Source: a phage. From it: 64,000 bases of DNA. Of the stretch, positions 4,840-28,392 are shown one piece after another; the first letter of the stretch is position 1, and every line of letters begins with the position of its first letter. The stretch lies in NCBI GenBank assembly GCA_008273105.1, contig GCA_008273105.1_4080.1; one strand, 5' to 3'. The notes below the pieces were generated by a model that was given only the letters and a program-made list of their open reading frames with translations, was not told where the DNA came from and did not search any database. The translations under genes and the position numbers were made by a program.

Positions 4840-7569
4840 TTATTTCCAACGTGTACCTGGACCTGATGGTACACCAGTACTGGCAGGTATCGCTGAACCA
4901 CGTTTCGTTGTACTTGGACGATATGTCAAAAAACGAGTTACTTTTTCTGTATCAATTGAAGTTATTCCTGAAGTTCCAGTAACTATCTTACCAATGTAAG
5001 TGCTAGTTAAAGATTCATCAATTGTTTCAGTACTAATAACATATGACGCTTTCTTAGTATTCCTGTTCATTTGTATATACAAATAGAACGTAGTATTAGC
5101 TGGATTACTTTTTACAGTACTTAAATCAACACTTTGTATAGGTAGTCTGTCGAAAATTCCACCTAAAAACACCGGAACTTCACGTGTAAAGTACACTGAG
5201 AATCCTTGTGCAACGTCTTGTGATACTACCACAATCTTTTCTTTAACGCTACCATTTCCACTAATTAAACCATCCATTTCAGCAGATGTTGTACCAAAAA
5301 CGCTGAATACAGATTTGGTTTGATAGTCAGAATCTTGAAAATTGTAATATCCAAAACCAACACCAGGAATAACACCATGTTGATATGCTGCACCAAGTTG
5401 GATGTAACTAGATGATAAAAAACGATTTGATGTTATGACACCATCTACTGTTTTAGCTATCATCATCTTAAATTGTGCATTACCTGGTTGTGAAAATTGA
5501 TGAACGGCATCAACACCAATGTAACCAAATCCTGAATATTTTGCAACAGTTAGACCAGTACAACGTTTCATATATGCTTCAGTAATAATTCCTGTAACAG
5601 AACTCAGTGTTTCATATCTAGTACTCACCAATGTAGCTGAAGTTATGTTAGTTCCAGATAATACAACATCAACTTCGGCATAGATTGCATAACCTTGGTT
5701 ATTGTTAAGATTATATGCTGAAACTACTGCGATGGATTTAGAAAAAGTATTATCAGGTACATAATATAATACAATTTGTCCAGATAGTGTACCAACAATG
5801 CCAGAGTTTCCTATATTAGCAAAAATATCTTGTTTTAATGATTCTAATACCGTTGGTTCTATTGTATATGTTTCATCAAATTCTAAAGTATCTGGATTTA
5901 ATAATCCACCACTTGTTTTATATACACCTTCAATGAATGATGTTCCATAGCATCTAACACTACCATCGGTATCAACAAGAGAAATCATAGCAGTGTATGT
6001 AAAATCATCGCCTATTTGTTTACGATTAGATTGTGGTGCAAAACCATTTAATGTAGTATTATTTTGAACTGAGTTATATTGATATGTTGGTTGTGAACCT
6101 ATTTCAGAAAAAACAGTATTATTATAATTATATGTTACATCATCATACGTACCAGAACATGCTAATAATATTTTTCTATTATCGATGAAACGTACACCTA
6201 AAAGGTTTGCACCAACAGCACTACCAAAAACTGGTAAAACGTTTGCATTTATAACGTTACTTGCGGTTCTAGTACTGGCAACCCATGAATCAAACGGTGT
6301 ACCACTAACCTTATATCGTTGTAGACCATAAAATTCAGTTGAACTCCATCTAAATTTAGATGCAAATACCAAACCATCTTTAGTTTGACATAAACCACCT
6401 GCGTTTCCTAATACACCAGCAGCAGTTGTCCCTGTGAAGTTGACCATATTAATTTCAAATGGGTTAGAAACTTGAAATCCATTATTATATGAAACAGTTG
6501 CAGGTGCACGAGCACTACCATCTAGTGACATAGATTTTGAGTTTATATTATAAACAAAACTTATTCCAGTACCATAAACTGTTGAAATATACAAAGGTGT
6601 AACCATTCGATGTGTTGGATATAAAGTTACACGTATTTTTGATAAATCAGGACTAACGTTGGCTTGAATGTTAAAGTCTGTATAGTCTGAAAATTCTACA
6701 CGTGATACTGGTGATGTAACTTCGAATAATGAATCCGAGCTAGTACCAACACTATATAATTTATCGAACACTCTTATGTTATTAGATGCAGAATAACTTG
6801 TGTTTCGAACAGTTTGACCTGATAACCCAGTAACTTTTGTTAATGATGCCATTGAGCTTGCTTTCACATCACTTAGCTCTACTGTATAAATTGAAAGTGC
6901 TAATCCTAAATTAGAAACACTTTTATCTTTACACCAAATATAAACCTTTGTCCCAACAATATGTGTATATATTGGCATATCATTACCAAAAGAAGTACTT
7001 GGCACTTTAGCATGAATATGTGATATTTCGTTAAATGTGCCATTGGTTATAGTAAAAATATAATTATCTTCAGTACTTAAACATCCAAGCATCTCATAAC
7101 CATTAGAGCCAATAAAATACTTAATATTTTCAGTACTACTCATAATTGAAGGTTTATACATTGAATTGGTTGAAATAACACTTTCTTGTGAAATCATAGT
7201 TATATTTCGGAGATCTCGTATAAATGAATAATAAAAACCTTTAGTACTACCATTGGTTCCGCTACGCAGAACAACGGCGGTTCCATCATCTTCAATAATT
7301 GTTGGCTGAACTACTTGGTCACTTGACATAGGTGTAGCACCTTCATACGATCCACTTACGTTTAATGGTAAGTAATCCATTTCTCCTACACGTGATATAG
7401 GCAACATATCTAAAATACTTTGAACTTCTGAACGCTTATATATTGGATATTGAACAATTCCAGTATTGGCATTCGGTGAGGTTCCATTAAAAGTACGCAT
7501 AGCGTACCTTTGTCCAATTGCCAAGTTCCCAAGGATCTCGGCACTTCCTATAATTCGTTTTGATGACAT
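4840..7569 (-). CDS. tail-fibre-like large structural protein (about 909 aa from adjusted start)
   Basis: N/S/T/G-rich; N-terminal LPISRVGEMDYLPLNVSGSYEG and LRSGTNGS blocks shared with the 8185..10881 protein; conserved C-terminal tail ending GTRWK; track ORF extends to 7659 but ATG at 7569 has an AAGGA RBS and avoids overlap with the upstream gene. Confidence 0.6.
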   Translation of the reverse strand: MSSKRIIGSAEILGNLAIGQRYAMRTFNGTSPNANTGIVQYPIYKRSEVQSILDMLPISRVGEMDYLPLNVSGSYEGATPMSSDQVVQPTIIEDDGTAVVLRSGTNGSTKGFYYSFIRDLRNITMISQESVISTNSMYKPSIMSSTENIKYFIGSNGYEMLGCLSTEDNYIFTITNGTFNEISHIHAKVPSTSFGNDMPIYTHIVGTKVYIWCKDKSVSNLGLALSIYTVELSDVKASSMASLTKVTGLSGQTVRNTSYSASNNIRVFDKLYSVGTSSDSLFEVTSPVSRVEFSDYTDFNIQANVSPDLSKIRVTLYPTHRMVTPLYISTVYGTGISFVYNINSKSMSLDGSARAPATVSYNNGFQVSNPFEINMVNFTGTTAAGVLGNAGGLCQTKDGLVFASKFRWSSTEFYGLQRYKVSGTPFDSWVASTRTASNVINANVLPVFGSAVGANLLGVRFIDNRKILLACSGTYDDVTYNYNNTVFSEIGSQPTYQYNSVQNNTTLNGFAPQSNRKQIGDDFTYTAMISLVDTDGSVRCYGTSFIEGVYKTSGGLLNPDTLEFDETYTIEPTVLESLKQDIFANIGNSGIVGTLSGQIVLYYVPDNTFSKSIAVVSAYNLNNNQGYAIYAEVDVVLSGTNITSATLVSTRYETLSSVTGIITEAYMKRCTGLTVAKYSGFGYIGVDAVHQFSQPGNAQFKMMIAKTVDGVITSNRFLSSSYIQLGAAYQHGVIPGVGFGYYNFQDSDYQTKSVFSVFGTTSAEMDGLISGNGSVKEKIVVVSQDVAQGFSVYFTREVPVFLGGIFDRLPIQSVDLSTVKSNPANTTFYLYIQMNRNTKKASYVISTETIDESLTSTYIGKIVTGTSGITSIDTEKVTRFLTYRPSTTKRGSAIPASTGVPSGPGTRWK

Positions 7570-19226: not shown

Positions 19227-20666
19227 TTACATATTTTCTTCAGCAAATTCTGCAAGTGGTGAACGAACAACACCTTCTAGTTCGATGACACGACAACCTG
19301 CCCAATCTTTAAACTTCTCAGTTACATATGTCAAACCACTGTTAACAGGACTAATAAACTTACTGTCAATCTGACTCAAGTTACCCATAATTACTACTTT
19401 ACAGTTTAATCCTGCTCGTGTCAAGATTGTTTTAGCTTGTGCAGGTGTAATGTTTTGGAATTCATCAACTACTAGAATAGTGTTGGTGAATGAACGTCCA
19501 CGTACAAAGTTTAGTGCTTTAAATTGAATAACATTACGTTTCATAATCTCTTCAATACTACCTTGAGGGTTAGCATCATCTTTATGAAGAAACTCTAACG
19601 CGTCAATTGCGGCTCCACAGAATGGAATCACTTTTTCTGCTTCTGAACCTGGCAAGAAACCAATATCTTCAAACTGTGAGTCTTGAGTTTTAGAGAAGAT
19701 GATTCGGTCGTATTTACGTTTTTCCAGTACTAATTCTAATGCAGTAGCAATCGTAATTAGTGTTTTACCAGTACCAGCAGAACCTAGCAGTACTGTTAGA
19801 TGTACATCAGGATCGAGAATACTGTTGATGGCGAGTGCTTGTTGGATATTCTTTGCTTTAATATCCCATACTTTAGCACGTAAAGCTACTGATTGTCCAA
19901 TATCTTGGAATACCAAAATATCTTCTGGTGTTAGTGTTCCATCATCTTCCTCAATTGCTGATTGACCTTCGTACACAAATAATACGTCTGCATCATCATA
20001 TAGATAATCACCGATGCATAGATTTTGTGGAAGCAAATGTTCAATCAAGCTTTTAGAAATGTAATGATACAAACGACGACCAACTTGTTCGGATTGAATA
20101 TTAGTATTGGTTAAGTTGCTATATACTTCCCAAAAATTAATTTCCAAATGGTGTTGACCAATGTGAATCAAATCACTATCACCAATAACAATATCATGGC
20201 GATAATCTTGTACCTCGACACCATAACTTAGTGCTTTGATACGCATGTTGATATCACGAGTTACCAGTACTGATTCTGTTGCTAAAGCTACCAGAATGAT
20301 TTTATCATCAGGTACTGTGCTTTTGAGAAGGGTTTGAACTTTCTCTTCTGAACCTTTAGTACGAATTAGTGCTTCAGCTTCTTCGTTTGTAATAACAAAC
20401 AATTTGCTATCAGGATTCATATTGGTATGAACATCAGCAATATTAACACCAGTACTACTAATCTCATCATGTGATGCATCTGCAATAATTGCTTCAATGT
20501 TACGAATAGCAACACGAGCATCGCGTGAAACATCTACATTACGACTCTTAATTGAATCCAATTCTTCCAGTACTGTAAATGGTAGAATGATTGCAGCACC
20601 ATCAAAAGCAATAGATGCATTAGGGTCAGATAGTAGTACGTTTGTGTCAATTGTATATTTTTTCAT
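19227..20666 (-). CDS. phoH: PhoH-like ATPase with N-terminal PIN domain
   Basis: Walker A LLGSAGTGKTLITIA; PIN-like N-terminus (MKKYTIDTNVLLSDPNA...LEELD); 479 aa. Confidence 0.8.
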   Translation of the reverse strand: MKKYTIDTNVLLSDPNASIAFDGAAIILPFTVLEELDSIKSRNVDVSRDARVAIRNIEAIIADASHDEISSTGVNIADVHTNMNPDSKLFVITNEEAEALIRTKGSEEKVQTLLKSTVPDDKIILVALATESVLVTRDINMRIKALSYGVEVQDYRHDIVIGDSDLIHIGQHHLEINFWEVYSNLTNTNIQSEQVGRRLYHYISKSLIEHLLPQNLCIGDYLYDDADVLFVYEGQSAIEEDDGTLTPEDILVFQDIGQSVALRAKVWDIKAKNIQQALAINSILDPDVHLTVLLGSAGTGKTLITIATALELVLEKRKYDRIIFSKTQDSQFEDIGFLPGSEAEKVIPFCGAAIDALEFLHKDDANPQGSIEEIMKRNVIQFKALNFVRGRSFTNTILVVDEFQNITPAQAKTILTRAGLNCKVVIMGNLSQIDSKFISPVNSGLTYVTEKFKDWAGCRVIELEGVVRSPLAEFAEENM

Positions 20667-20726
20667 AAAACATCCTTGAGTTATGAGTACATCCTTGTAC
20701 TCGACTAATGTTATTGACTCGGATTA

Positions 20727-21029
20727 TTACATATTTGGTTCGTATTCAACATAGCAACGTGAACCTCGAACCTTTTCTTCCCAGCACTCCTGGTAAACAA
20801 GTTGACCAATTGAAACTGGTTCTCTTGATAGTCCATTACGTACTTCACCACTTTGGGTTTTATACATAAATGAACATTTGGACTCGCTACATTGTCCTAA
20901 ACTAACAACTTCTGCGGTATTGTAGTGAATGTTGGTACGCTTAGTGTTCTCGTGATACTGTCCGAACCAAAGAACTCCTGCACCTAACAGAACAGTACAA
21001 ATAAGACTTTTGATGTGTGTTTGAATCAT
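20727..21029 (-). CDS. small membrane-anchored Cys-containing protein (100 aa)
   Basis: N-terminal hydrophobic segment LICTVLLGAGVLWF. Confidence 0.45.
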   Translation of the reverse strand: MIQTHIKSLICTVLLGAGVLWFGQYHENTKRTNIHYNTAEVVSLGQCSESKCSFMYKTQSGEVRNGLSREPVSIGQLVYQECWEEKVRGSRCYVEYEPNM

Positions 21030-21346
21030 AATGAGTTAAATCCATTGTTTAAGTATGTTTCAATATTAATTTTACCAACAGGATTACTACTGTGAACAAA
21101 GTACTCAAACGGTTCTTTAATATTATTATCAAACATATAATCAATAAGAAACTTAGCAAAAGAATATCCAGTCTTTTCGTCTTCGCTCACATCACCCAAG
21201 TCATGGTCGAATGATACAAATGCTGGAATTCCATTTTCAATAACATATTCACATGCACTTTTAAAGTCACGACATACCACCATATCTTGGTTTGGATAAT
21301 ATAGATTTGCATCACGAATATCATCCAAAAACATTGAGTAAGACAT
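21026..21346 (-). CDS. hypothetical protein, possibly receiver-fold-like (106 aa)
   Basis: Track ORF co-located with the Sir2-like and Nudix-like genes; contains FDHDLGD and HSSNPVGK; fold assignment speculative. Confidence 0.4.
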   Translation of the reverse strand: MSYSMFLDDIRDANLYYPNQDMVVCRDFKSACEYVIENGIPAFVSFDHDLGDVSEDEKTGYSFAKFLIDYMFDNNIKEPFEYFVHSSNPVGKINIETYLNNGFNSL

Positions 21347-21355
21347 GTTAAACTC

Positions 21356-21907
21356 CTATAGATAACTAATTAGTAAGTTTTCTTTTTGAACCAGATACTC
21401 CAATTCTTGTTTTGCTGTACCGATGAAGTTCTGTGTCATAAGATTATTATATCCCGCTTCTCGATTTTGTCCCTTAGAATAACGCGAAATATGACATAAA
21501 TTTACACCAGCAACTTCTGCACTTGCATGTTTAGCATTAGTGTATCCATCTCTAATGTGTTTCAACTCGTCATAGGTTACTTCATAGCTAAAACTGTGAC
21601 TGTTTGCACCTGGGTAAATTTCAAAAGTTTTGAGTGGTCGAAGATGGGAAACAAAAATATTGTAATCCATTTCTTCTTGAACTTCACGACGCAACGCATC
21701 TTCTAGTGAGATATCAGTACTTTCTACGGTTCCACCACATCCACCAAGAAGACCATCCCATCGTAATTGCAGTAATACTAAATTTACTTCTGGTATATCA
21801 TTCAACTCATAGTTTTTGTAAGGGTTGCATTTTCTTGCAAAGAAATAACAAAATACAAAATTTGCACGTGTGCCATATTCACCAAAGGGAACTTCTTTAA
21901 CACTCAT
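21356..21907 (-). CDS. putative Nudix-family hydrolase (degenerate Nudix box)
   Basis: GGCGGTVE...RREVQEEMDY approximates the G-x5-E-x7-R-E-U-x-E-E-x-G-U box but with a longer spacer and D in place of G. Confidence 0.4.
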   Translation of the reverse strand: MSVKEVPFGEYGTRANFVFCYFFARKCNPYKNYELNDIPEVNLVLLQLRWDGLLGGCGGTVESTDISLEDALRREVQEEMDYNIFVSHLRPLKTFEIYPGANSHSFSYEVTYDELKHIRDGYTNAKHASAEVAGVNLCHISRYSKGQNREAGYNNLMTQNFIGTAKQELEYLVQKENLLISYL

Positions 21908-22662
21908 TTCATACGTTCCTTAATTATAGTCTCTAGATGCGGTATTGCTTTGGTTGCTGGCTTGATAACTTTTTCATTAAACAAAAAATCATTATCATTT
22001 TTACGAATGTTAACATTAACACTATAACATGGTAATGCTGCTGCTAATCTCGACCATACCAGTACTGTATCGCTACTACCAATTACAATAACTGTATCAT
22101 TTTCATTAAGAGATTTCAACACATTATTTCGTTCTTCGTAAATTGGTAAGCGAATACCATCAACATAACGATGATATTCTCCAATCATTACTACATTTGG
22201 TTTGGCAAAAACATCATGTTTTGGTATGTATGGTTCGTATCCGCAGTTAATAACATTATAATCATCAGAATTGATACTATAATTTTCAATAACTTCACAC
22301 AAGTTTCCATGAAGTTTAAGCTCATGACCACCAATACGAGTATAAAGATCGTCCATGTTAGAAGTCATATGAAGGAAGCAATCACCATATTGATCTTCTA
22401 ACGATTTTATAAAATAATGCATTGCATTTGGTTCGCATTGTCCCAATTTTACACGTAATGTATTATAGAAAGAATGAACAACATGATATTTTGTAGTTAA
22501 ACTAGCAATGTTACATACATCATTAATTTTAAATGTATCCCACAAACCATCATCAAATCGAAAAGGTTCCATACCACTTTCAACAGAAAGTCCTGCACCT
22601 GATATAATCAGTAATCGCTTTTTACCTTCATTGCTTATAAATTTTTCTGATATCATATTCAA
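21904..22662 (-). CDS. Sir2-family (sirtuin-like) NAD-dependent protein
   Basis: ISGAGLSVESGMEPFRFDDGLWD matches the GAGIS-x-x-SGIP-x-FR signature; TSNMDDLYTRIGG and LKLHG (candidate catalytic His) in expected order; VVMIGE and IVIGSS blocks. Confidence 0.6.
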   Translation of the reverse strand: MNMISEKFISNEGKKRLLIISGAGLSVESGMEPFRFDDGLWDTFKINDVCNIASLTTKYHVVHSFYNTLRVKLGQCEPNAMHYFIKSLEDQYGDCFLHMTSNMDDLYTRIGGHELKLHGNLCEVIENYSINSDDYNVINCGYEPYIPKHDVFAKPNVVMIGEYHRYVDGIRLPIYEERNNVLKSLNENDTVIVIGSSDTVLVWSRLAAALPCYSVNVNIRKNDNDFLFNEKVIKPATKAIPHLETIIKERMK

Positions 22663-22665
22663 TCC

Positions 22666-22860
22666 TTATAAAAAAACAATTAAATATATTGATAATAACA
22701 GAATGATTCCAATATGATAGGCATACATAAAATTATTATCTTTGTGATAACCATTGGATTTCAAGTCCCTATATAAGCATTTAGCATTGTTATAAATTAC
22801 AACAATAGAAAAAACTATAAAAAAACTCAAAACCCATTCATAAATTGTGTATGCCATCAT
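22666..22860 (-). CDS. small membrane protein (64 aa)
   Basis: Two hydrophobic helices. Confidence 0.4.
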   Translation of the reverse strand: MMAYTIYEWVLSFFIVFSIVVIYNNAKCLYRDLKSNGYHKDNNFMYAYHIGIILLLSIYLIVFL

Positions 22861-22887: not shown

Positions 22888-23481
22888 TTAATATTTTAAA
22901 ACATCAAACTCTTCGCTTACGCTTGTTACATTATCACTAACAATTTTAAAAATTGATTTGATACGTTCGTGTAGTGGTTTTTTAGATTCGTTCTCAACTT
23001 CAATATATGCTTGCATTGCTGCAATTGCATGATATGTCCCACTACCTACTGCGGTAATTCTTGTTTTAGGTTGTAGTACTGAAAAGTCTTCTTGAACTTC
23101 ATAGATTGTATGATTGTGGAGAATGATAAATTGTCCACCACCTACATCTTGTGATGCATCTCGTGCACCCCATTCTTCTTTAAACATTTGACGAATGATT
23201 GGAATAACTTTAAGAACCAAATATTGTGAAAATGTTTGACTAGCATCTTGTTCAGGTAAATTAAGGTTATAATTTAACAACTGACCCATACGAAATGATG
23301 TAGTATAACCCAATGCCATTACTTCTTTAGTTCTAGTTAGTCCATCATCATGTAACTTGATAAATTCTTTCTCGAATACCTTTGGCTCAGTTTGAACAGT
23401 TTTTGTAAATCCATTGCTTCCTAACTTATCCCCAGCAATAAAAGAACTTACTCCGTCAGTGTGTGCAATAATACAGGTCAT
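22888..23481 (-). CDS. HslV/proteasome-like N-terminal-Thr peptidase (about 197 aa)
   Basis: From internal ATG at 23481 the product begins MTCIIAHTDGVSSFIAGDKLGS (compare HslV TTIVSVRRNGHVVIAGDGQ); C-terminal AVGSGTYHAIAAMQA resembles HslV AIGSGGPYAQAAA; track ORF extends to 23550. Confidence 0.5.
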   Translation of the reverse strand: MTCIIAHTDGVSSFIAGDKLGSNGFTKTVQTEPKVFEKEFIKLHDDGLTRTKEVMALGYTTSFRMGQLLNYNLNLPEQDASQTFSQYLVLKVIPIIRQMFKEEWGARDASQDVGGGQFIILHNHTIYEVQEDFSVLQPKTRITAVGSGTYHAIAAMQAYIEVENESKKPLHERIKSIFKIVSDNVTSVSEEFDVLKY

Positions 23482-23738
23482 AAAATAGCTCCAATTGCAA
23501 ATAATGTTGTGTATAAGATATAAATTAGTGCTCCTAACAACATTAGGCACACCAAGTATGAAGTTGATAGTACATAATAAATTATTGCTTCGAATTTTGA
23601 ATTGAACTTCATTGTAGTTGGATCAATAAAGCCATTACGATAATCTTTGTAAATGAAAACTGTTAGAAAAATAACTGTAGCATACATTACTACAGTAGCA
23701 TAAAAAATAATAGATGTCAAGTTTTGGATGTTTGTCAT
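23478..23738 (-). CDS. small membrane protein (86 aa)
   Basis: Three hydrophobic segments; stop overlaps the HslV-like start (ATGA). Confidence 0.45.
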   Translation of the reverse strand: MTNIQNLTSIIFYATVVMYATVIFLTVFIYKDYRNGFIDPTTMKFNSKFEAIIYYVLSTSYLVCLMLLGALIYILYTTLFAIGAIL

Positions 23739-23808: not shown

Positions 23809-24432
23809 TTATTGTTTGACTGAACCGTAAAAAACCAGTTCTGGTTTTGTTAATATTACAACATCTTCACCACGAGAACGACTAACTCTAAATAGAACTT
23901 CTGGTGGGATTCCATTTGCTGCATATAGTGAAAAAAGGAAACCTACCTTTGTTGCCATTTCTTCGGTAAAAGTTGATAGCTGTCTTACAGACACAAATGA
24001 ATTATCACCATCAGTAACATTACTTTTAATCGAAATGTTATGAAGACCCAGTACTGAGCGATTTGTCATATATCGCTTTTCGGGAGATACACTAAAGAAT
24101 ACCACAGTACATGCTGAATTGCAATACCTAGAAACAATTAAATTTATCCCATTGTCTCTAACAAAGTTTGCCATTCGAATACCTGCATCAAAATCACCAC
24201 CAGGAGATGTAATTGTGATGGTATCATAGTGTTCTTTATCATACAACTCTATCATTCTCTTGAGTGACCCATCTGTAATATCTGATATGAAATATACATT
24301 TCGGGTTTCAGGATTATACTTTATCACATTTTTACTTTCAATACCAGCACTGGCTGGAAAATTTATTAACAATAGAAACATCGCTGCTTGTATCACTTCA
24401 AGCCATAGTCTTTTCATATAACAAGTCCTCAA
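23809..24432 (-). CDS. signal-peptide-bearing ClpP/SppA-fold protein
   Basis: N-terminal hydrophobic signal (AAMFLLLINFPASAG); ITSPGGDFDAGIRMANF resembles the ClpP/S49 SPGG block; catalytic triad not clearly identifiable. Confidence 0.4.
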   Translation of the reverse strand: MRTCYMKRLWLEVIQAAMFLLLINFPASAGIESKNVIKYNPETRNVYFISDITDGSLKRMIELYDKEHYDTITITSPGGDFDAGIRMANFVRDNGINLIVSRYCNSACTVVFFSVSPEKRYMTNRSVLGLHNISIKSNVTDGDNSFVSVRQLSTFTEEMATKVGFLFSLYAANGIPPEVLFRVSRSRGEDVVILTKPELVFYGSVKQ

Positions 24433-24543: not shown

Positions 24544-24572
24544 ATCATATCATACCACTGATGTTTTGTCAA
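24544..24572 (-). promoter_or_regulatory. sigma70-like promoter (TTGACA, 17 nt, TATGAT) on minus strand
   Basis: Read on the minus strand: TTGACA aaacatcagtggtatga TATGAT, about 110 nt upstream of the 23809..24432 gene. Confidence 0.45.
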
Positions 24573-27696: not shown

Positions 27697-28392
27697 TTAC
27701 ACCCACTCTTCTACACCGCCGCGACGCTTAACTAAGTACTTACCTTCTTCGTTACGTGGTCCAAGAATAATACCATCAATGAAACCATGTTCACCATATT
27801 CAAGTGCTTCTTCTGCATTTAACCACAAATCGCGGTCAGCATCTTTTAGTAATTGTTCATGTGATACACCTACAGCTTCTGCAATTTCTTTGGTCAACAA
27901 TGTATTCAGTGCATCAGAATGTTGTAGGGAAATCTTCTGGTCTGTAATTAGACCTTGTGTACCAGAACTTACTTGGTGACACATGAAGTATGAGCGTTTA
28001 CCACCTAAACGGAAACCTTTAGTCCCAATAACAGATTGTGTATAGCAACCCATTGATGCTGCATAACCCATAACTACAGTGCGAATTGGGGAAATACAAG
28101 ACTTAGCAACATCTGCAATACCCAAACCTGCGTGTACTGAACCACCCGGTGAACTAATGTAGAATGTAATAGGGGAATCACCTTGTGAGTCTAACCATAC
28201 CAATTGTTGTTTGATGATATGTGCCATTTGATCATTGAAATCAGTATCAAGGAAAATGATACGGTCTTGCATCATACGAGATGCTAGATCATATGTACGT
28301 TCTGAACCATTAACTTTCTCAACTACGTAAGGAATAGAAATGTTACGTACTTCGCCATTAGCATAACCACCAAACATGAATTGTTCAACCAT
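27697..28392 (-). CDS. clpP: ATP-dependent Clp protease proteolytic subunit homolog (ClpP)
   Basis: ISSPGGSVHAGLGIADV...VVMGYAASMGCY...FMCHQVSSG...DADRDLWL aligns block-for-block with ClpP including the Ser, His and Asp triad positions. Confidence 0.8.
   Translation of the reverse strand: MVEQFMFGGYANGEVRNISIPYVVEKVNGSERTYDLASRMMQDRIIFLDTDFNDQMAHIIKQQLVWLDSQGDSPITFYISSPGGSVHAGLGIADVAKSCISPIRTVVMGYAASMGCYTQSVIGTKGFRLGGKRSYFMCHQVSSGTQGLITDQKISLQHSDALNTLLTKEIAEAVGVSHEQLLKDADRDLWLNAEEALEYGEHGFIDGIILGPRNEEGKYLVKRRGGVEEWV

Follow-up and report, generated by a model that had tools for sequence, protein, structure and literature searches.

A jumbo coliphage protein of 197 residues is predicted, from its sequence and a structural model, to be a proteasome-type (MEROPS T1-like) Ntn hydrolase in which threonine directly follows the initiator methionine. 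The explanation that we favor as a whole, and hold with somewhat better than even confidence, is a solitary, ring-forming Thr1 peptidase that belongs to a separate family and cleaves without a dedicated unfoldase. Its gene occupies 22888..23481, stop codon included, on the minus strand of the window, by which we mean the whole stretch of 64,000 nucleotides that was analyzed; the preliminary description of this DNA had given no strand. The window region is 99.5-99.7% identical to the Asteriusvirus jumbo coliphages (PBECO4, 121Q-like phages, phAPEC6), and adding about 44,484 to a window position gives the matching position in the PBECO4 record NC_027364.

Start codon, fold and predicted active site

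The mechanically called ORF (22888..23550, minus strand) opens at a GTG and contains an internal ATG at 23481..23479. Translation from this ATG gives the 197-residue product MTCIIAHTDGVSSFIAGDKLGS...AVGSGTYHAIAAMQA...VLKY, with the N-terminus MTCIIAHTDG. The preliminary description had chosen the internal ATG, which puts threonine directly after the initiator methionine, and had pointed to an upstream start as the alternative. The internal ATG reads as the true start because several features agree on it. It overlaps the TGA of an upstream 86-aa ORF in an ATGA (23478..23481, minus strand), and a Shine-Dalgarno sequence, GGAG, stands 7 nt 5' of it (23489..23492, minus strand). RefSeq gives the corresponding PBECO4 gene, gp096, an identical start and a 594-nt CDS, and 204 of the 217 relatives that we retrieved begin with MTC. 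Position 1 of the family profile likewise aligns with protein residue 1 in nearly all of the 150 best hits from a library of 1.8 billion proteins. The ten related loci inspected, which extend to about 30% identity, each have a purine-rich motif resembling a Shine-Dalgarno sequence a few bases 5' of ATG/TTG-ACN-TGY. The upstream GTG at 23550 is ruled out: the 86-aa ORF occupies that stretch in another frame, and the homologues begin with MTC. The ATGA overlap itself suggests translational coupling of the 86-aa ORF and the peptidase.

Methionine aminopeptidase acts before small P1' residues such as threonine. Given this specificity and the precedent of E. coli HslV, we infer that the host enzyme would remove Met1, leaving threonine as both N-terminus and nucleophile.

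The preliminary description had also read an HslV-like order of sequence blocks in the protein. This order is borne out: IAGD occupies residues 15-18 and AVGSGTYHAIAAMQA residues 144-158. A search of the PDB with the single protein returned chance-level matches only (recoverin, E = 0.17), and a family profile was needed instead. The profile matched HslV at E = 9e-8, aligning its MT, D and K with Met-Thr1, Asp17 and Lys33 and its VGSG with IGSG; proteasome β subunits and the stand-alone proteasome homologue BPH ranked after HslV, BPH at E of about 2e-3.

Structure prediction and superposition had been proposed as a check, with a non-Ntn fold as the adverse outcome. An AlphaFold2 model built with the family alignment as input (pLDDT 92.7, pTM 0.89) has the four-layer αββα Ntn fold, superposable on proteasome β, HslV or BPH. 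Its strands and helices follow the order expected for a proteasome-like subunit, with H1 at 63-72, H2 at 84-104, H3 at 149-166 and H4 at 170-184. A Foldseek search of the PDB placed HslV at the top (E = 4e-10), followed by BPH and 20S β subunits. Structurally, the protein appears to be as near to BPH as to HslV.

Residues Thr2, Asp18, Lys34, Gly58 and Gly146-Ser147-Gly148 of the phage protein correspond to T1, D17, K33, G45 and the GSG motif of HslV. Nine columns are invariant in an alignment of 34 sequences reaching down to 27% identity (M1, T2, C3, D18, K34, F63, G146, G148 and V188). In a set of 173 relatives below 60% identity, T2, D18, K34 and G146 are each present in all, G58 and G148 in 171 each, and C3 in 165. 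Position 147 in the GSG loop is more variable, being serine in the window peptidase and cysteine in about half of the family. The catalytic residue set is intact, and the invariance of Thr1, Asp17 and Lys33 (mature numbering) together with a near-invariant oxyanion glycine reads as a signature of strong purifying selection on catalysis. That the protein is a catalytically dead or structural relic with no enzymatic role has nothing specific in its favor and is extremely unlikely, given that the three residues never vary and the oxyanion glycine is kept in 171 of 173 relatives, to about 27% identity. In the mechanism that we propose, Thr1 would be assisted by Asp17, Lys33, the oxyanion glycine and the G-S-G loop, as in HslV, BPH and 20S β subunits.

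Two features of the protein lie outside this shared core. The cysteine after the nucleophile (Cys3, window 23473..23475), nearly invariant among the distant members, is a threonine in E. coli HslV. An Asteriusvirus-specific insertion of about 20 residues (roughly residues 39-57; 23311..23367, minus strand), seen in both alignment and model, is missing in most of the family. It lengthens the β-hairpin between the strand that carries Lys33 and the strand that carries the oxyanion glycine. The hairpin is modeled as strands 35-43 and 50-59, in a block with pLDDT of 95-97.

A proteasome-like family related to HslV

The protein matches PHROG 1040, "peptidase HslV family", over residues 1-196 (E = 4e-24, 86.7 bits). 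Searches with models of HslV itself gave a different picture. The NCBIfam equivalog models TIGR03692 and PRK05456, whose cut-offs are 137 and 157.75 bits, score 19.9 and 18.9, with matches confined to residues 119-171, the GSG region. BLAST against E. coli HslV aligned only 43 residues. A Pfam search of the peptidase returned no Proteasome (PF00227) match. Because the protein falls far below the NCBIfam cut-offs and appears structurally as near to BPH as to HslV, sequence and model together place it outside the HslV orthologues, in a separate proteasome-like family of phages and bacteria. Of the preliminary description's "HslV/proteasome-like" assignment, the fold and the catalytic set stand and HslV orthology does not, so the label "HslV" is valid at the superfamily level only.

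Comparison with solved relatives sharpens this placement. With HslV (ClpQ; PDB 1NED, 1G3I, 1M4Y) the peptidase shares the Ntn αββα fold, a threonine that would be exposed by methionine removal alone, with no propeptide, the residues D17 and K33, the oxyanion glycine, the GSG motif and a compact build without the C-terminal H5 helix. It differs in having only 16-18% identity, in its own signature of Cys2 (mature numbering) and GYTTSFRMGQ, and in the absence of hslU from its operon and genome. To BPH (PDB 5OVS, 5OVT, 5OVU), a stand-alone relative of known structure for which no unfoldase is known (PMC5777263, PMC8665760), identity is 14-16%, and the profile match is weaker than to HslV. BPH forms a heptameric double ring and has a long acidic pore loop; the loop after H2 in our model of the phage peptidase is about 13 residues long.

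Fuchs, Alva and Lupas (2021) grouped HslV, BPH, AAH, CPH and PPH as a compact "group I" found in bacteria and phages (PMC8665760). The phage peptidase has the traits of the AAH, CPH and PPH members of this group, being compact, distributed among phages and bacteria, and built around the Thr1/Asp17/Lys33 core. The family is probably their AAH group, an assignment made from the published description. That description fits the taxonomic spread seen here, namely α-proteobacteria such as Azospirillum, Firmicutes and many phages; AAH is also described from Actinobacteria, none of which appear among the 80 related loci listed. PPH was considered and rejected. PPH proteins have about 140 residues and no helix H2 (PMC8665760), and the peptidase, with 197 residues and H2 at 84-104, is therefore not one of them.

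Annotated phage proteins of PHROG 1040, such as PBECO4 gp096 (YP_009150410), EPS7 AGC_0103 (YP_001837026) and Aeromonas phage 2L372X gp210, belong to the same family. The window peptidase shares 98-100% identity with the annotated proteins of Asteriusvirus and 30-35% with those of T5-like phages (Epseptimavirus) and Aeromonas phages. They agree in length, in the MTC start and in their catalytic residues; the Asteriusvirus proteins differ by their extra hairpin of about 20 residues. The name given to PHROG 1040 itself rests on homology.

The family is very large. An exhaustive profile search recovered 8,248 cluster representatives at 50% identity, 2,066 of them at E ≤ 1e-30. By tblastn it occurs in 198 phage records, which include T5-like Epseptimavirus as well as Aeromonas, Vibrio, Xanthomonas, Salicola and Ochrobactrum phages. 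Bacterial carriers include Azospirillum, Polyangiaceae, Paenibacillus, CPR bacteria and Dehalococcoidia. In Azospirillum and related α-proteobacteria the chromosomal surroundings of the homologue are conserved and of housekeeping type, with gltX-like and NAD-synthetase-like ORFs within the 10-kb loci; the family therefore extends beyond phages.

Two marks set the family apart from E. coli HslV, which has neither: a cysteine directly after Thr1, and the invariant motif G-[YF]-T-[TS]-S-F-R-M-x-Q right after the oxyanion glycine. The same marks speak for an alternative that we judge unlikely, in which the protein is a non-degradative Ntn enzyme performing transpeptidation or ligation, a single processing cut, or the hydrolysis of a non-protein amide. 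Connectase, a proteasome-fold relative, keeps the nucleophile and yet is a ligase (PMC8665760), and the phage peptidase has a weak, sub-threshold Pfam match to the connectase N-terminal domain (E = 0.088). It does not qualify as a connectase proper (PF09894), for which a Pfam match above threshold and the S3/S4 helical lid would be required. In unrelated phages, moreover, the gene often stands amid nucleotide-metabolism genes. Anbu, another stand-alone relative, is called only a "hypothetical" protease (PMC5666114). Taken together, the status of Anbu and the ligase activity of connectase mean that an intact catalytic triad is no proof of a degradative role.

Some members depart from the common architecture. 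At one locus of Aeromonas phage 2L372X, a gene of the MTC family (5001..5552, with a TTG start and the N-terminus LTCIIAL...) is followed by a PPH-like gene of about 138 codons (TTIAYK..., 5570 to the end), which matches the family profile at the GSG region only. The MTC family and PPH are therefore distinct and able to co-occur, and the tandem suggests a possible hetero-oligomeric phage "proteasome". We found no second paralogue or PPH-like gene in the Asteriusvirus genome. Eight metagenomic relatives (P0053, P0081, P0083, P0092, P0095, P0096, P0104 and P0105) carry C-terminal extensions of 70-200 residues with acidic, low-complexity linkers. In at least four of these (P0053, P0083, P0104 and P0105) the C-terminus is a short conserved tail, ...[FY][PS][HP]N[IA][GS]...KL..., that resembles a helix pair of the HeH/SAP type. 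As a clue to function the extensions were set aside: they contain no Pfam domains, only an acidic linker and then the short tail.

Gene neighborhood and candidate unfoldases

To look for a conserved partner, we clustered the ORFs of 160 related loci all against all and compared the neighbors of 78 viral and 78 bacterial loci. No conserved partner gene was found; no neighbor family, unfoldases included, occurs in more than 10 of the 78 viral loci. Synteny is lineage-specific only: genes of HD-domain-like and LigA-like type recur in 8-10 viral loci, and in Azospirillum an ElbB-like gene occurs together with a 77-aa membrane ORF. In the Azospirillum-type loci the ElbB/DJ-1-like gene lies directly upstream, and the conserved 77-aa ORF directly downstream in 27 loci. 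Members of the family travel as solitary genes.

The immediate neighbors in the window conform to this pattern. Upstream of the peptidase lies the hydrophobic, membrane-type ORF of 86 aa (23478..23738, minus strand) and downstream a hydrophobic ORF of 64 aa (22666..22860, minus strand). Both come from the ORF list, are absent from the RefSeq annotation of PBECO4 and have no Pfam or PHROG match. They are 93-98% conserved in phage 121Q (93% for the 86-aa ORF), the only phage in which conservation of the 64-aa ORF was seen. The 86-aa ORF is missing from relatives at 66-67% identity and is therefore not linked to the peptidase.

The putative operon begins with the gene for a 207-aa "protease" (23809..24432, minus strand), two genes upstream of the peptidase. 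It matches PHROG 26024 (E = 4e-119) and, below the cut-off, Pfam CLP_protease (E = 0.004). Its hydrophobic, signal-like N-terminus indicates that the product may be exported or membrane-anchored. Outside close relatives this gene is not kept beside the peptidase. A functional module joining this protease to the 86-aa and 64-aa membrane ORFs was considered and rejected as a general feature, as the arrangement is conserved in 121Q only and not in relatives at 66% identity.

Further upstream, the divergent intergenic region ahead of the block contains a sigma-70-like promoter candidate (24544..24572, minus strand; TTGACA-17-TATGAT with an upstream TG, 11/12 matches). Promoter-like sites in the region as a whole are no more numerous than in shuffled sequences, and this candidate, read as 24572..24544, is without statistical support.

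Downstream of the peptidase a run of minus-strand genes (19227..22662) encodes Sir2 (21904..22662), a Nudt16-like Nudix protein (21356..21907), a protein with a cREC_REC "cyclic-phosphate processing receiver" domain (21026..21346) and a PIN-PhoH fusion (19227..20666), all on the minus strand; the run also holds a 100-aa membrane protein. The combination of Sir2, Nudix, cREC and PIN-PhoH hints at NAD/ADP-ribose or RNA-end metabolism, possibly in counter-defense. PADLOC defense models gave no match for the peptidase, the 207-aa protease, Sir2 or cREC, and a weak match of the Nudix protein to PDC-S07 (E = 0.002). Elsewhere in PBECO4 (NC_027364 157841..170100) ten genes annotated "regulator of chromosome condensation" (RCC1-like) stand in tandem, opposite in strand to the genes around them.

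The preliminary description had remarked that no AAA+ unfoldase gene adjoins the peptidase. This holds over a wider range: none lies within ±20 kb, where the PIN-PhoH fusion is the sole P-loop protein. With E. coli HslU as the query, tblastn found nothing significant in the window. We also searched the whole genome of the near-identical phage PBECO4 with E. coli HslU, ClpX, Lon, ClpP and HslV; no HslU was found there, the only match to the HslU search being a ClpA homologue. HslU is rare among the phages of this family: it matched in at most 16 Salmonella or Escherichia phage records, as against 154 with the peptidase family. HslU-like genes do occur in other jumbo phages, in the Erwinia Ea35-70 group and in some Salmonella jumbo phages.

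The preliminary description's view of the peptidase as standing alone without HslU is thus upheld for the gene, which has neither HslU nor partner, and overlooks the phage's own ClpA, ClpP and ClpS. The ClpA homologue, gp539, has 762 residues and is encoded at NC_027364 330788..333076 (minus strand), outside the window. Over 579 residues it shares 44% identity with E. coli ClpA; it has the Pfam architecture AAA, AAA_lid_9, AAA_2, ClpB_D2-small and is the only unfoldase in the genome. A ClpS-domain protein of 181 residues, gp457, identified by its Pfam domain, is also outside the window (NC_027364 249684..250229, minus strand). A ClpP homologue of 231 residues, PBECO4 gp105, is encoded in the window (27697..28392, minus strand), about 4.2 kb from the peptidase gene; it is 36% identical to E. 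coli ClpP and has the motifs GYAASMG, MCHQ and DRD. Judged by homology, the phage lineage encodes a complete Clp set of its own, ClpA/ClpP/ClpS. RefSeq labels gp105 a "head maturation protease", yet another protein, gp520, is annotated as "prohead core scaffolding protein and protease", and its gene is only two genes away from that of the major head protein. For gp105 the label is probably a mis-annotation.

The ClpA homologue is a candidate for a partner, being full-length, accompanied by a ClpS-domain protein and the sole unfoldase in the genome. It might cap the peptidase to form a phage-specific ATP-dependent protease alongside the phage ClpAP, an arrangement that we regard as very unlikely. 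At the position of ClpA's ClpP-docking IGL loop gp539 has the tripeptide IGM, and its C-terminus (...KALV) is without the HbYX motif used for proteasome docking. Its features read as wired for ClpP docking and not for a proteasome-type ring, which makes it unlikely as the docking partner of the peptidase. A bona fide ClpP homologue is at hand in the window, the gp539 and peptidase genes are about 265 kb apart on the linear map, and the 160 loci examined show no conserved neighbor that could be an unfoldase.

Host HslU is the other unfoldase to consider. E. coli HslV alone is nearly inactive, and HslU switches its activity on; a lone homologue could likewise need an activator. As the preliminary description had suggested, the peptidase might hijack the host protein. 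In such a scheme a hexameric double ring of phage subunits would dock E. coli HslU, replace or compete with HslV, and redirect ATP-dependent degradation to targets useful to the phage. By sequence profile, no solved relative is closer than HslV (E = 9e-8, versus 2e-3 for BPH), and the host, E. coli, has hslVU. The family is also common in phages of proteobacteria and Firmicutes, phyla that bear HslV (Table 1, PMC8665760). We nonetheless regard hijacking of host HslU as pure speculation, and as an improbable account of the gene.

Proposed role and significance

The solitary Thr1 peptidase that we favor would work as follows. Once methionine removal has exposed the nucleophile, the subunits would assemble into a self-compartmentalizing ring like those of the nearest structural relatives. 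Inside the infected cell, this ring would cut peptides or proteins that lack structure, with no unfoldase dedicated to it. The gene would be expressed with the surrounding minus-strand genes of early or middle host takeover and nucleotide metabolism, maybe from the candidate promoter in the divergent intergenic region. We found no functional or biochemical study of any family member in the literature, where mentions are at the level of annotation.

Much of what is described here has been visible before. The RefSeq name of the PBECO4 gene is already "peptidase HslV family". HslV genes without HslU were remarked upon in the Salmonella jumbo phage pSal-SNUABM-04 in 2020 (PMC7823757), and phage proteasome homologues were catalogued in 2021 (PMC8665760). 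The gene and its annotation, the phage homologues and the remark on missing HslU are all public. The value of the finding is as a pointer to a very large family whose active site is perfectly conserved and whose gene is solitary in many unrelated lytic phages and in some bacteria.

A bolder reading, which we consider doubtful, takes the MTC family as a true viral proteasome: an unfoldase-independent ring that unrelated lytic phages use early against specific host proteins. The phages concerned would be the jumbo Asteriusvirus and T5-like, Aeromonas, Vibrio and Xanthomonas phages, and the targets might be, for example, immunity or stress-response factors. The cysteine and the GYTTSFRMGQ motif would then provide a regulation or specificity absent from HslV, BPH and 20S, and the Asteriusvirus hairpin would gate or target the chamber.

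For annotation, the lesson is that "HslV family" is a fold-level label and not evidence for an HslVU system; the real ATP-dependent protease set in this phage lineage is the ClpA/ClpP/ClpS trio. For the solitary peptidase itself, finding its substrates would throw light on phage remodeling of the host proteome, and on whether a chamber of the proteasome type can do without an unfoldase.
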